Assembly (NCBI GenBank): GCA_016235745.1
Contig: JACRJA010000071.1
Location: forward strand, 21,913-85,912
Source of the DNA: Rhodocyclales bacterium
GTDB taxonomy: Bacteria > Pseudomonadota > Gammaproteobacteria > Burkholderiales > Rhodocyclaceae
Length of the DNA: 64,000 nucleotides
Direction: 5' to 3'
A program made the position numbers and the translations under genes. The notes below the pieces were generated by a model. That model searched no databases, was not told where the DNA came from, and saw only the letters and a program-made list of their open reading frames with translations. The stretch's first letter is position 1; every line of letters begins with the position of its first letter. Of this stretch, positions 10,033 to 62,924 are shown in pieces.

Positions 10033-10117
10033 TGGTGCCCAGAAGAGGACTCGAACCTCCACGCCTTGCGGCACTGGTACCTGAAACCAGCGCGTCTACC
10101 AATTCCGCCATCTGGGC
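10033..10117 (-). tRNA. tRNA-Leu (anticodon CAG), CCA encoded
   Basis: Hand-folded cloverleaf. Acceptor GCCCAGA/TCTGGGC, anticodon stem CTGGT/ACCAG with loop TTCAGGT, long variable arm, T-arm GGAGG-TTCGAGT-CCTCT, 3' ACCA. Confidence 0.9.
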
Positions 10118-16644: not shown

Positions 16645-16717
16645 TGCCGGCAGTCCGATTCGAACGGACGACCTTCCGCTTACAAGGCGGGTGCTCTACC
16701 AGCTGAGCTATGCCGGC
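16645..16717 (-). tRNA. tRNA-Thr (anticodon UGU), CCA not encoded
   Basis: Hand-folded cloverleaf. Acceptor GCCGGCA/TGCCGGC, D-arm GCTC-AGCTGGTA-GAGC, anticodon loop CTTGTAA, T-arm GTCCG-TTCGAAT-CGGAC, discriminator A. Confidence 0.9.
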
Positions 16718-57880: not shown

Positions 57881-58315
57881 ATGCCGGCGCGGTTCGCCAT
57901 CCCGACTGCGGTGCAGGTGCGCTTGTTCGACGGGCAGGGGCGGGTGCTCTTCCTGCGCCGCGCCGGTACGGGCTTTTTCGACGGGTTCTGGAGTCTGCCG
58001 GGCGGGCACGTGGAAAACGGTGAGAGCCTGCGCCAGGCCGCCGTGCGCGAGCTCGCCGAGGAGCTGGGCATCGTGGTGGCGCAGGAGGCGCTCGCGGCGG
58101 TGGCGGTGGTGCATCGCGCCTCCGATACCAACCGCATCGAGTTCCTCTTCGATGCGCATCGCTGGCAGGGAGAGGCGCGCATCGCCGAGCCGCACCGCTG
58201 CGACGCCTTGCGTTGGGAGGATCCGGCGCGCCCGCCCGAGCCCTTCGCCCCCTACCTCGCGGCGGTGTGGCCGCAGCTGGGGCGGCAATGGCTGCTCGAG
58301 GTGGGATGGGACTAA
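57881..58315 (+). CDS. NUDIX hydrolase
   Basis: Nudix box GGHVENGESLRQAAVRELAEELG. The start is either ATG 57881 or GTG 57872, which overlaps the dut stop. Confidence 0.75.
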   Translation: MPARFAIPTAVQVRLFDGQGRVLFLRRAGTGFFDGFWSLPGGHVENGESLRQAAVRELAEELGIVVAQEALAAVAVVHRASDTNRIEFLFDAHRWQGEARIAEPHRCDALRWEDPARPPEPFAPYLAAVWPQLGRQWLLEVGWD

Positions 58316-58485
58316 CCCCCAGCCGTCCCGAGGGGGCTGGTGTGCCGTGAATCCCCGTGCTTCTTTTGCCGGAGGCAGCAACGGGCGGCATTCGATGAGG
58401 CCGCGGCTTGTGGTCATGCTGGCGCCGCGCCGCGTTAGCCCGTAAAATGGCGCCTTTGCGCCGCCATCGAGCATCCGGACGGACC

Positions 58486-59409
58486 ATGAGCGAAGAAAAA
58501 CCCACGTTTCAGGACCTTATCCTGCGCCTGCAGCGCTACTGGGCCGAGCTGGGCTGCGTGCTGCTGCAGCCCTACGACCTGGAGGTGGGCGCGGGAACCT
58601 CGCATACCGCCACCTTTCTGCGCGCCATCGGCCCCGAGCCGTGGAACGCTGCCTACGTGCAGCCCTCGCGCCGCCCCAAGGATGGGCGCTACGGCGAGAA
58701 CCCCAACCGGCTGCAGCACTACTACCAGTTCCAGGTGGTGCTGAAACCCTCGCCGCTCGACATCCAGGAGCGCTACCTCGCCAGCCTCGTGGCGCTGGGG
58801 ATCGACCCGCGCGAGCACGACGTGCGCTTCGTCGAGGACGACTGGGAAAACCCCACGCTGGGCGCCTGGGGCCTGGGCTGGGAGGTGTGGCTCGATGGTA
58901 TGGAGGTGACGCAATTCACCTATTTCCAGCAGGTGGGGGGGCTGGACTGCCGCCCCGTGCTCGGCGAGATCACCTATGGGCTCGAGCGCCTGGCGATGTA
59001 CCTGCAGGGCGTGGAGAACGTCTATGACCTCATTTGGACGCGCACGGGCGAGGGTCAGGTGGTCACCTACGGCGACGTCTTCCATCAGAACGAGGTGGAG
59101 CAGTCGAAATACAACTTCGAGTATGCCAACGTGCCCCTGCTCTTCGAGCTCTTCGGCCACTTCGAGGCCGAGGCCAAGCGCCTGATCGAGGCGGCGCTGG
59201 TGCTGCCCGCCTACGAGATGGTGCTCAAGGCCGCGCACACCTTCAATCTGCTCGATGCACGCGGGGCGATCTCGGTGACCGAACGCGCCGCCTATATCGG
59301 GCGCATCCGGGCGCTCGCCCGCGCGGTGGCCCAGGCCTATTTCGCCAGCCGCGAGGCGCTGGGCTTTCCCATGCTCGCTGCGACCGCCAAGAAAGGAGCT
59401 AGACTCTAG
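58486..59409 (+). CDS. glyQ: glycine--tRNA ligase alpha subunit
   Basis: 307-aa product [31 protein letters not shown]…[12 protein letters not shown]…, highly conserved GlyQ sequence. Confidence 0.9.
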
Positions 59410-60802
59410 TATTGCAAATAGTGCGCAATAGTAGATTAAAGAATACAAATAGCCATGCACCTAACCCACAAGATCGCCCTTTGTCCGACGCCAGCGCAAG
59501 CCGACTATTTCAAGCGCGCTTGCGGCACGGCCCGCCGTGTCTGGAACTGGGCGCTCGCTGAGTGGAACAAGCAGTACGCGGCAAGCGGCAAACCCAACGC
59601 CATGGCGCTGAAAAAGCAGTTCAACGCCCTCAAGTACAGCGATCCGCAGTGGCTCGACAAGAACGGGCACCCTTGGCTACGCGACATCCATCGTGATGCC
59701 CATGCCCGGCCGTTCGATCATCTCGCCAAGGCATGGAGCCGGTTCTTCGCCGACCTCAAGGCCGGGAAACCCGCGCATGCGCCACAGTTCAAGAAAAAAG
59801 GCCGCTGCCGCGACAGCTTCTACGTCGCCAACGACAAGCTCACGGTCGCAGACAAGACGATCCGCCTTCCCAAGATCGGTTGGGTGCGGATGCTCGAAGC
59901 CTTGCGCTTCGAAGGCAAGATCCTTGGTGCTACCGTTTCGCGCTCGGCGGATCGCTGGTTCGTCGCGATCCAGGTCGAGGTGCCGGACCGCCAGTTTTAT
60001 CTCCCGCGCGCCGCAAATGGCACGGTTGGAGTCGATCTAGGCGTCAAAACTGCGGTCAAGCTCTCGACCGGCGAGGCCATCGACGCGCCCAAGCCGCTCA
60101 AGGCCGCGCTGCGACGGCTCAAAATCCGCAGCCGCCGCCTCAGCCGTAAAGTGAAAGCGGCCAAAGTCGCGGCAGGGTTTGCGCCGAACGCCCGGCTGCC
60201 AAAAGGCACCAAACTCCCGGTATCCAACAACCGTCAGAAGTCCGCTCAGACCTTGGCAAGGCTGCACGCCCGCATTGCCAATATCCGAGCGGACTTCACT
60301 CACAAGCTCACCACTCGGCTCTGCCGTGAAAACCAAGCGGTCGGGATCGAGGACTTGCACGTCAAGGGAATGCTGGCGAACGACAAGCTCGCCCGCGCCC
60401 TCAGCGACGTGGGCTTTGGAAGGTTCCGCGCGCAGATGGAGTATAAGGCCAAGCGCTACGGCACCCGGCTGATCCTCGCCGATCGCTGGTATCCCAGCAG
60501 CCGCTTGTGTTCCGTCTGCAATTGGAAGAACGAGGCGCTGACCTTGAGCGACCGGGAATGGACGTGTCCGGAATGCGGCGCGCACCATGACCGCGACTAC
60601 AACGCGGCGCTCAACCTGCAACGGCTGGCAACCGCAACTGCCCTACCCGAGGCGAGTCCGGCCGGTAACGGCGGCGCTGCGGCAGAGAGGGTCTCTGCCG
60701 TAGCCGGGAAAGTTACGCCTGTCAGAGACGACAGTGGTCCTCAAGACACGTCGGGGCAGGAAGGGAACCGTGCGCACTTTCGCGCACGTTCTTGAGAGCA
60801 GC
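59398..60802 (+). mobile_element. IS200/IS605-family (IS1341-type, tnpA-less) element carrying only tnpB, inserted between glyQ and glyS; ends approximate
   Basis: glyQ and glyS are separated by a 1.4-kb insert. It consists of a 45-bp AT-rich leader, a 446-codon TnpB ORF and a 14-bp tail. No transposase (Y1 or serine) gene is present. The boundaries are inferred from the composition change and from the reading frames of the flanking genes. Confidence 0.6.
59455..60795 (+). CDS. tnpB: TnpB (InsQ) RNA-guided DNA endonuclease, RuvC triad and zinc ribbon intact
   Basis: 446-aa ORF with the typical N-terminus (HKIALCPTPAQADYFKRACGTARRVWNWAL). RuvC motifs are VGVDLGV (D194), GIEDLHVKGM (E299) and HHDRDYNAALNL (D381). 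Zn ribbon is CSVC…CPEC (C352/355/371/374). Confidence 0.85.
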   Translation: MHLTHKIALCPTPAQADYFKRACGTARRVWNWALAEWNKQYAASGKPNAMALKKQFNALKYSDPQWLDKNGHPWLRDIHRDAHARPFDHLAKAWSRFFADLKAGKPAHAPQFKKKGRCRDSFYVANDKLTVADKTIRLPKIGWVRMLEALRFEGKILGATVSRSADRWFVAIQVEVPDRQFYLPRAANGTVGVDLGVKTAVKLSTGEAIDAPKPLKAALRRLKIRSRRLSRKVKAAKVAAGFAPNARLPKGTKLPVSNNRQKSAQTLARLHARIANIRADFTHKLTTRLCRENQAVGIEDLHVKGMLANDKLARALSDVGFGRFRAQMEYKAKRYGTRLILADRWYPSSRLCSVCNWKNEALTLSDREWTCPECGAHHDRDYNAALNLQRLATATALPEASPAGNGGAAAERVSAVAGKVTPVRDDSGPQDTSGQEGNRAHFRARS

Positions 60803-60809
60803 CTGAGTC

Positions 60810-62924
60810 ATGAGCGAACGGGAAACCCTGCTGGTCGAACTCGTCACCGAGGAACTGCCGCCCAAGGCGCTGCCGCGGCTGGGCGAATCTTTTGGGCGCG
60901 GCGTGCTCGAGCGCTTGCAGGCGCGGCGCCTGGCCGAGGCCGATGCTGCCTGGCGCTGGTTCGCCAGCCCCCGGCGGCTGGCGGTGCAGGTGCGCGACGT
61001 GCGCGAGCGTGCCGCAGACGAACCCCGGATCGAGCGCCTCATGCCCGTAGCGGTGGCGTTCGACGCTGCCGGCAAGCCCACGGCCGCGCTGGAAAAGCGC
61101 CTCGCCGCCAAGGGGCTTACGCCGCAGAGCGCCAAGCTCGAGCGCCGGCTCGACGGCAAGCAGGAGATGCTCTACCTGCATACGGTGGAGGCCGGCGCGC
61201 GGCTCGACGAGGTGCTCGCCGCGATCGTGGCCGAGGCGATCCGCGCCCTGCCCATCCCCAAGCTCATGCGCTGGGGTTCGGGCGAGGCGCAGTTCGTGCG
61301 TCCGGTGCATCGCCTGGTGCTGCTGCACGGCGCGCGCGTGGTGCCGGGGCGCGTGCTCGACCTGGACTCGGGCCGCGAGACGCTGGGGCATCGCTTCATG
61401 AGCCGCGGCGCGATCGAGCTCGCGCAGGCCGAGGCCTATGAGCCGACGCTGCGCGCCGAGGGCAAGGTCATCGCCGACTTCGCCGAGCGGCGCGCCGAGA
61501 TCGAGCGTCAGCTGCAGGAAAAGGCCCAAGCCGAAGGGGGCGTTCTCGGCGAGCATGCGGCGCTGCTCGACGAAGTGACCGCCCTCGTCGAGCATCCCAC
61601 CGTCTATGTCGGGCGCTTCGAGGAGGAATTCCTCGCCGTGCCGCCCGAGTGCCTCATCCTGACGATGCAGGCGAACCAGAAGTATTTCCCGTTGTTCGAT
61701 GCGCAGGGGCGACTGACGAACCGCTTCCTCATCGTCTCGAACATGCACCTGTCCGAGCCCAAGCGCCGCAACATCATCGAGGGCAACGAGCGGGTGGTGC
61801 GCCCGCGCCTGGCCGATGCGCGCTTCTTCTACGAGCAGGACCGCAAGGAACGGCTGGAAGCTCGGCTGCCGCGGCTGGAAGCCATTGTCTATCACAACCG
61901 TATTGGCACTTTGGGCGCGCGGGTCGCGCGGCTCGAAGCGCTCTGCGCCTGGCTCGCCGAGCGGCTGGCTGCCGACGTGGCGCTGGCGCAGCGCGCGGCC
62001 CGGCTCGCCAAGTGCGACCTCGTCACCCAGATGGTGGGCGAATTCCCCGAGTTGCAGGGCGTGATGGGGCGCTACTATGCGCTCGCCGACGGCGAGCCGG
62101 AAGCCGTAGCCGAGGCGATCGAGGACCACTACAAGCCGCGCTTCGCCGGCGATGCGCTGCCGCGCCGGCTCACGGGGAAAATCGTGGCGCTCGCCGAGCG
62201 GCTCGATGCGCTTGCCGGGCTCTTTGCCATCGGCGAGATCCCCACCGGCGAGAAAGACCCCTATGGTCTGCGCCGCGCCGCGCTGGGGGTGCTGCGCATC
62301 GTCCTCGAAACGCCGTTGCCGCTCGAGCTCGACGCGGCGATCGAGCGCGCGCTCGCCGAGCAGCCTCCGGCGGTGCGGGCCCAAGCCCCGGCCGACACCG
62401 CCGACAAACTGCGCCGTTTCTTCGACGAGCGCCTGCGCCATTGGCTGCGCGAAGCAGGGCATGCGCTCGACGCGATCGACGCGGTGCTCGCGCTGCGCCC
62501 GAGCCGCATCGACACGGTGCCGGCGCGGCTCGAGGCGGTGGCCGCCTTCCTCGAGGCGCCGGAAGCGCCCACACTCGCCGCGGCCAACAAACGCATCGCC
62601 AACCTGCTCAAGAAAGCGGGCGAGGAAGGCGCGGCGCACGTCGACGTGGCGCTTTTCGCCGAGCCCGAGGAGAAGTCGCTCTTCGAGAAGATGCACGCCG
62701 TGGCCCCCTACGTCGCTTCGCACCTGGAAAACGAGGCCTACGCCCAGGCGCTCCGCACGCTGGTGGCCCTGGCCGCGCCGGTGGACGCCTTCTTCGATCG
62801 CGTGATGGTGCTGTGCGACGAGCCGCTCTTGCGCGCCAACCGCCTGGCGTTGCTGCGCGAGCTGTGGCGGCTCATGAATCAGGTGGCCGACCTGTCGGTG
62901 CTCGCGCGCGAGGCCGGCGGCTAA
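60810..62924 (+). CDS. glyS: glycine--tRNA ligase beta subunit
   Basis: 704-aa ORF beginning [24 protein letters not shown]…, the characteristic GlyS N-terminus. Confidence 0.9.

Follow-up and report, generated by a model that had tools for sequence, protein, structure and literature searches.

The glyQ-glyS operon of a Rhodocyclales bacterium is interrupted by an insertion at positions 59399-60801 of the stretch of contig JACRJA010000071.1 analysed here (64 kb, hereafter the window). The insertion is 1,403 bp long and is very probably an IS607-family element without tnpA, which carries an intact predicted TnpB nuclease and an omega-RNA (also termed reRNA) scaffold with a guide that would be supplied by the start of glyS. 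On the + strand, glyQ is followed by the tnpB open reading frame (ORF) and then by glyS. The element lies in sense orientation within the operon, directly 3' of an AGGAG motif, and its GC content is 61.6% compared to 66.9% for the window. It is an ordinary representative of a known TnpB class, and the twist is its landing on the glyS ribosome-binding site. The locus contains the following features.

58486-59409, + strand: glyQ, alpha subunit (Pfam tRNA-synt_2e; junction comparison)
59394-59398, + strand: AGGAG, the original glyS Shine-Dalgarno sequence, now left-flank target motif and candidate target-adjacent motif (TAM) (empty site; left-end survey)
59397-59434, + strand: conserved left-end terminus, AGCTAGACTCTAGTATTGCAAATAGTGCGCAATAGT (92-95% identity to L013:2127 and L016:366; common to more than 12 other loci)
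59399-60801, + strand: inserted element, probable IS607-family derivative without tnpA (both junctions aligned with the uninterrupted glyQ-glyS junction of L081 and L082)
59435-59454, + strand: remnant of the tnpA 3' end and the tnpA-tnpB junction (resembles ...GAGAAATATGAGTAAGCC-ATG of L013)
59455-60795, + strand: tnpB, 446 aa, full length (Pfam, NCBIfam, alignment to ISDra2 TnpB)
60627-60801, + strand: omega-RNA scaffold of at least 175 nt (41-copy alignment, RNAalifold, pair counts with controls)
60794-60801, + strand: scaffold 3' tail and right-end terminus, GAGAGCAG (invariant ...T[G/C]NNAGCAG where homology ends)
60802-60821, + strand: predicted guide template, CCTGAGTCATGAGCGAACGG, of which 16 nt reach 60817 (first flank past the conserved right end)
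60810-62924, + strand: glyS, glycyl-tRNA synthetase beta subunit (Pfam tRNA_synt_2f and DALR_1; ORF intact)

Both boundaries are fixed by comparison with related copies and with an unoccupied site. A scan of one genome per species yielded 80 loci encoding TnpB relatives at 44-80% amino acid identity. BLASTN of window positions 59300-60950 against these loci showed nucleotide homology stopping at 60801 in about 55 copies, whose right ends all finish ...T[G/C]NNAGCAG and whose flanks beyond are unrelated. Position 60801 is 6 nt past the tnpB stop and 8 nt ahead of the glyS ATG. An earlier interpretation of the locus, hereafter the sequence-only reading, had proposed that the flank just past the right end serves as guide; the common end point of these copies upholds this. 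At the other side, positions 59395-59432 match the left ends of full-length copies at 92-95%, and those ends lie 0.7-0.9 kb upstream of tnpB. All left ends start GG-AG-CT(N)GACTCTAG, with unrelated sequence on the 5' side of the GG. The protein collection contains a single close relative of GlyS (94% identity), and the contigs of this relative (L081, L082) show the same gene order with an uninterrupted junction ...GCAAAGAAAGGAGCCTGAGTCATGAGT... The empty site in the relative reads AAAGGAG/CCTGAGTCATG, in agreement with the site reconstructed from the window (AGGAG + CCTGAGTCATG). The trinucleotide AGC is present at both junctions (59397-59399 and 60800-60802) and only once in the empty site, which leaves up to 3 nt of play in the placement of the boundaries. 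Comparison of the junctions with the empty site revealed no target duplication. Exact-protein look-ups of the window's GlyS and TnpB in the assembly collection found neither on record.

The last two bases (AG) of the AGGAG at 59394-59398 are the candidate crossover dinucleotide. A GG directly precedes AG-CT... at all of about 44 genome left ends and at 22 out of 22 metagenome left ends. The dinucleotide common to both junctions is AG, compared to the canonical GG of IS607, with GG sitting just 5' in the target. A GG core was rejected as a candidate because the base after the right end is variable (A 53, G 31, T 27, C 16).

The family assignment stems from the full-length relatives, which encode a 212-aa protein between the left end and tnpB. 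This protein is the IS607 transposase NF033518 (NCBIfam; 163 bits for L013, cut-off 110). About 20 nt of this region remain in the window copy, the rest of tnpA (~640 bp) having been deleted, and neither a tnpA nor a second element copy was found within the 64-kb window. Since tnpA is gone here and present in full-length relatives, we consider the window copy a non-autonomous IS607-family derivative. Derivatives without tnpA are frequent, accounting for at least 12 of about 44 copies as judged by a left-end-to-tnpB distance of 58-390 nt. An exact metagenome search with the window's tnpA-deletion junction returned 0 matches, hence there is no sign that this derivative has moved.

About 17 loci of Chloroflexus sp. 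MS-G also contain this element, with TnpB identities of about 78-80% (the loci compared being L006-L008, L014, L015, L019-L022, L024, L026, L027, L065, L067 and L076 versus L001-L005, L011 and L012). Further copies occur in Betaproteobacteria, Gammaproteobacteria, a Nitrospirae metagenome-assembled genome and Deinococcota metagenome-assembled genomes, many of them from thermal habitats. The presence of the same element in Chloroflexus, Proteobacteria, Nitrospirae and Deinococcota implies transfer across phyla. In Thermomonas hydrothermalis, a second, orphan scaffold with right end (L035:2947-3206) is located directly upstream of the tnpA fragment (DLMTIVHCFS...) of a neighboring element, which suggests a nested or rearranged insertion.

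The tnpB gene apparently encodes a RuvC nuclease with intact catalytic residues, which is predicted to be active. The ORF contains the Pfam domains HTH_OrfB_IS605, OrfB_IS605 and Cas12f1-like_TNB, all above their cut-offs, and matches NCBIfam guided_TnpB with 308 bits (cut-off 100). The RuvC triad D194, E299 and D381 is present within the motifs GVD, IED and HDRD, and both these motifs and the zinc-finger cysteines C352, C355, C371 and C374 (CxxC...CxxC) align with ISDra2 TnpB. ISDra2 TnpB is also the closest natural protein with a solved structure (8exa, 8h1j; E = 4e-57). It scores 197 bits, compared to 147 bits for chain 8iaz, which is labelled only 'Transposase' in the database and which we take to be ISFba1 TnpB. 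A long imperfect hairpin within tnpB (GAAGTCCGCTCAGACCTTGGCAAGG...ATTGCCAATATCCGAGCGGACTTC, 60237-60297) gives rise to chance miRNA-like matches in Rfam. This hairpin is kept in closer relatives and not in the Massilia subgroup, and no consensus structure was found for it across the family.

The omega-RNA scaffold lies inside the tnpB ORF except for its last 6 nt. An alignment of 41 non-redundant copies over their final 260 nt (alignment A2) shows high nucleotide conservation from 60627 onward, and we refined the helices predicted by RNAalifold to a structure of 44 pairs.

60627-30/60639-42, + strand: helix A
60646-49/60705-08, + strand: helix B
60662-64/60669-71, + strand: helix C, with a GNRA-type loop
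60677-87/60693-703, + strand: helix D
60718-23/60755-60 plus 60729-32/60750-53, + strand: helix E
60763-67/60789-93 plus 60769-75/60782-88, + strand: helix F

The window copy has standard pairs at all 44 positions. Across the 41 copies, 92.1% of cells show standard pairing, compared to 39.8-45.1% when partners are slid by 1-3 columns. Cells with both sides changed number 200 (21-56 when slid), and pairs with compensatory change number 20 (5-12 when slid). None of 500 shuffles matched the observed value on any of these measures. Helix D spans 11 bp (60677-60703) with compensatory change in 9 of the 11 pairs, and helix F spans 12 bp (60763-60793) with 5 covarying pairs. G-U pairs are frequent and tolerated on the + strand only. 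Because they would be C-A mismatches on the opposite strand, the structure is that of an RNA of the tnpB strand. Conservation at third codon positions rises to 0.68-0.80 in the last 60 codons, compared to 0.50-0.68 over most of tnpB. This signal is modest, since a value of 0.76 is also attained by codons 281-300, a good distance upstream of the scaffold. An additional hairpin of 15-24 nt is found in the helix A loop of the Massilia subgroup and L023 (A2 columns 109-132, between 60634 and 60635), an expansion segment that is not part of the window copy.

The conserved, covarying structure of the 41 copies supports the proposal of the sequence-only reading that a candidate omega-RNA overlaps the tnpB 3' end. 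The three stem-loops named there were correctly placed, as can be read directly from the sequence, namely CGGCAGAGA-ggg-TCTCTGCCG at 60680-60700, CTGTC-agagac-GACAG at 60719-60734, and GTGCGC-actttc-GCGCAC at 60770-60787 followed by GTTCTT at 60788-60793. Covariation supports the first and the last of these (within 60677-60703 and 60763-60793, respectively). The CTGTC/GACAG stem is paired in only 54.6% of cells with zero compensatory change. Across the family, CCTGTC (60718-60723) pairs with GGCAGG (60755-60760) instead of GACAG.

The template of the guide would be the first 16-20 nt beginning at 60802, a length range taken from ISDra2 and ISFba1 (PMC11061315). The predicted guide CCTGAGTCATGAGCGA(ACGG), at 60802-60817(21), consists of 8 nt of leader followed by the glyS ATG (60810) and codons 2-4. 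The tnpB stop TGA (60793-60795) is indeed separated from the glyS ATG by 14 nt. The start codon and first codons of glyS are thus covered as had been supposed, while the ribosome-binding site is not, given that AGGAG (59394-59398) lies to the left of the element. Within the window, the only perfect match to the guide is its own template, which is preceded by GCAG; no further guide target with a TAM was found there. The combination of AGGAG and CCTGAGTC... is present solely in the empty site. AGGAG is the measured TAM in 18 of 22 tested IS607 TnpB strains (PMC11061315), and we infer it as the candidate TAM here from the insertion sites. The GCAG at the right end differs from the GGAG TAM at position -3, and this difference would provide self/non-self discrimination.

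TnpB is known to turn its own mRNA into omega-RNA by processing (PMC10278001). In the window, read-through transcription from glyQ or tnpB into glyS could yield an RNA with the 3' extension CCTGAGTCATGAGCGA(ACGG) as guide. The TnpB-RNA complex would then recognize AGGAG next to guide-matching sequence, a combination limited to the restored, element-free junction. Cleavage of this junction might be followed by recombination with a sister copy that puts the element back in place (restorative homing). Cleavage of the resident copy would be avoided, as GCAG instead of GGAG abuts the guide-matching DNA at its right end. Given that the window copy has no transposase gene, the system would be idle unless an IS607 TnpA is supplied in trans.

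The sequence-only reading had described an addiction-like arrangement, in which a nuclease programmed against an essential operon makes loss of the element lethal or repair-dependent. A chromosomal double-strand break that stays unrepaired is lethal in essential and non-essential genes alike, and the arrangement is not special to glyQS. Excision, the event that the guide would punish, is also impossible without an outside transposase because this copy carries no tnpA. What survives of the idea is restorative homing by TnpB, which has already been published (bioRxiv 10.1101/2023.11.20.567912; review PMC13565253). Overall, the observation made there is real and its central reading is right; the corrections concern the start of the guide, the identity of the TAM with the Shine-Dalgarno sequence, one false stem and the missing transposase.

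Several findings weigh against a working TnpB-omega-RNA system at this locus. Folded as a single sequence, the stretch 60560-60830 has a z-score of -1.18, with 27 of 200 shuffles folding equally well, and thermodynamic stability by itself is not significant. A match to a known omega-RNA family was likewise not obtained. A search of positions 59000-61300 against Rfam 15 (4,227 families, cmscan) down to E <= 10 produced only chance miRNA-like matches, RAGATH-18 being absent. At gathering thresholds, a scan of the whole window returned two tRNAs only, with no family of the omega-RNA, RAGATH-18 or IS605-orfB kind among the matches. Support for the RNA is hence purely comparative, and for lack of an Rfam match the scaffold is not of the RAGATH-18 type found with those IS607 TnpBs whose AGGAG TAM was measured. 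As the protein is nearer to the IS200/IS605-type ISDra2 TnpB than to 8iaz, the TAM has to be read from insertion sites. No sigma-70-like promoter was predicted in 58300-61100, and the missing transposase gene adds to these points. A ribonucleoprotein holding the guide would also occupy the glyS start codon of its own transcript, which may limit usable guide RNA. The tRNA genes at 10036-10117 and 16645-16717 (- strand) are the window's only Rfam matches at gathering thresholds.

The insertion separated glyS from its Shine-Dalgarno sequence, which is now about 1.4 kb away on the left of the element. It also removed the original glyQ stop (TGA within CCTGAGTC). A TAG in the left end (59407-59409) provides a new stop, and GlyQ ends ...KKGARL compared to the former ...KKGA. 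Since this in-frame left end (59399-59409) adds only two residues, the insertion is nearly neutral for glyQ. Translation of glyS may be coupled to the tnpB stop 14 nt upstream.

Insertion between a Shine-Dalgarno sequence and the start codon of a co-oriented gene recurs in the family. An insertion was counted when an ATG 4-13 nt past its right end started an ORF of 100 codons or more. This configuration was found at 21 of 56 genome loci and at 14 of 85 independent metagenome loci, or 28 of 127 unique sites when pooled (22%; right flanks of L001-L080 and L085-L204). As a control, the remaining GGAG sites of these loci gave 136 of 1,807 (7.5%), which corresponds to an odds ratio of 3.5 (p = 8e-7). 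Since the motif targeted by the element coincides with the Shine-Dalgarno core, many copies occupy such positions. The enrichment could, however, reflect purifying selection against intragenic insertions instead of a target preference. Where position -6 of the tail is a purine (GAGAGCAG in the window copy, GAAAGCAG elsewhere, as opposed to GATAGCAG), the tail adjoins a start codon in 10 of 17 cases compared to 18 of 110 for other tails (p = 4e-4, ignoring phylogeny). This association may represent compensation for the displaced ribosome-binding site or a lineage effect. The association of insertion sites with start codons is strong in proteobacterial copies and weak in Chloroflexus copies.

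Taken together, these patterns lead to a broader and rather speculative reading, which we regard as unlikely though worth stating. The subfamily would use (A)GGAG both as integration target and as TAM, slotting in sense orientation between ribosome-binding site and start codon. The element would be transcribed with the operon, here the essential glyQS. Translation of the downstream gene would proceed by termination-reinitiation at the tnpB stop 8-17 nt upstream, with the tail purines (GAGAG, GAAAG) acting as partial Shine-Dalgarno replacements. If so, guide-RNA production and glyS translation would compete for one transcript, and silencing the element would starve the host of GlyS.

The most serious alternative holds that the element is a stranded relic, in which TnpB and RNA are structurally intact and functionally idle, and no donor-joint target is ever made. 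Such a relic would persist because precise removal is improbable and imprecise removal damages glyQS. This explanation agrees with ours on what the sequence is and differs only on present activity, and we give it somewhat less than an even chance. In its favor are the missing tnpA and second copy within the window as well as the commonness of derivatives without tnpA. Exact searches of metagenomes found no sibling of the deletion derivative, and the assembly collection has no record of its TnpB or GlyS. However, no damage is seen in the tnpB ORF, in its catalytic residues or in any of the 44 scaffold pairs, which points to recent activity or continued selection. The search for tnpA also spans the 64-kb window, and TnpA could act in trans from elsewhere in the genome. 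A role as a domesticated regulator akin to TldR, with TnpB and its RNA binding near the glyS start and tuning expression without cutting, is the least credible of the alternatives. TnpB-derived repressors are known (bioRxiv 10.1101/2025.07.22.666180), and the guide does match the glyS start region. That match arises automatically upon insertion, though, and members of this element family occupy many unrelated sites. The sole matching DNA in the window is the template, beside GCAG instead of a TAM. Neither the loss of RuvC residues nor the C-terminal truncation of TldR-type proteins was seen here; triad, zinc finger and full length are all intact, unlike in nuclease-dead TldRs.

Two further explanations concern the scaffold itself, and both appear very improbable. 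Protein-coding constraint on the C-terminal tail of TnpB could alone account for the conservation, leaving the stems incidental. In 56 of 58 copies, the ORF runs on across the entire scaffold and stops 1-18 nt before the right end, and the peptide motifs GKVTPVR and SGQE recur. Coding constraint cannot, however, yield compensatory double changes at 20 pairs, nor the collapse of pairing upon a slide of one column. Codon periodicity is weaker in the scaffold stretch, and alignments to solved TnpBs in the PDB stop at residue 397, ahead of the tail. One copy (L034) has its stop 114 nt ahead of the right end and nevertheless keeps the RNA sequence. The stem-loops could otherwise be signals at the level of DNA or transcription, either as transposase sites or as an intrinsic terminator formed by helix F and a T-rich run. 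IS607 ends hold TnpA repeat units (review PMC13565253), and TTTCTT follows helix F in most relatives. The strand-specific G-U pairs indicate a + strand RNA instead. Serine recombinases act on duplex DNA and have no need of hairpins. As for termination, no + strand terminator was called in 58300-61100, a strong one would abolish transcription of the essential glyS, and a terminator would be much smaller than the conserved structured region (about 175 nt).

Among known systems, the locus resembles IS607 TnpB-reRNA systems with an AGGAG TAM, such as ISFba1 and relatives (Cell Res 2024, PMC11061315). Shared features are the IS607 serine-recombinase partner (here in full-length relatives), insertion directly 3' of (A)GGAG, a guide from the right flank and a compact nuclease with RuvC domain and zinc finger. 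In ISFba1-type systems, the reRNA with its RAGATH-18 core is located wholly downstream of the ORF (PMC11061315), whereas the scaffold described here lies within the ORF without a RAGATH-18 match. With 446 aa, the window TnpB also exceeds the range of 330-433 aa given for those proteins (PMC11061315). In the placement of its RNA, the element is closer to ISDra2 of the IS200/IS605 group (8exa, 8h1j), where the omega-RNA overlaps the tnpB 3' end, stops at the right end and takes its guide from the flank. ISDra2, in contrast, relies on a Y1 HUH transposase, single-stranded DNA and a TTGAT TAM, compared to a serine-recombinase partner, a GGAG motif and an AG crossover dinucleotide here. The locus thus shows that an ISDra2-like TnpB with an ORF-embedded scaffold can go together with a serine recombinase of the IS607 type and a target like AGGAG. 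It also yields an annotatable scaffold without an Rfam family, the exact limits of the element, and predictions of guide and TAM. The wider reach of this case stems from AGGAG being a ribosome-binding site, with 22% of 127 independent insertions falling between Shine-Dalgarno sequence and start codon, including one in an essential operon. This raises questions about translation of the downstream gene and about a conflict of guide-RNA production with host expression, of which a similar one has been described for IStrons.

The IS607 IStron of C. botulinum has a transposase target identical to its TAM (TGGG) and a right end of TCGG, with discrimination at position -3, and its TnpB helps the element to be retained once TnpA has excised it (bioRxiv 10.1101/2023.11.20.567912). 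In ISXfa1, the IS607 scaffold extends to the junction and the guide lies in the flank (PMC10711439). The window element would follow both in the identity of target and TAM, in a scaffold ending with the core dinucleotide, in restorative homing and in the conflict between guide-RNA production and the interrupted host transcript. Position -3 alone distinguishes the right end from the TAM, with TGGG/TCGG in the IStron and GGAG/GCAG here. The core is GG in IStron and ISXfa1, with a TAM of TGGG or GGG, compared to AG here. The window element also has no group I intron for splicing out of the host mRNA, unlike the IStron. The ORF-embedded scaffold, the lack of RAGATH-18 and the protein nearer to ISDra2 TnpB are variations within a known kind of element.

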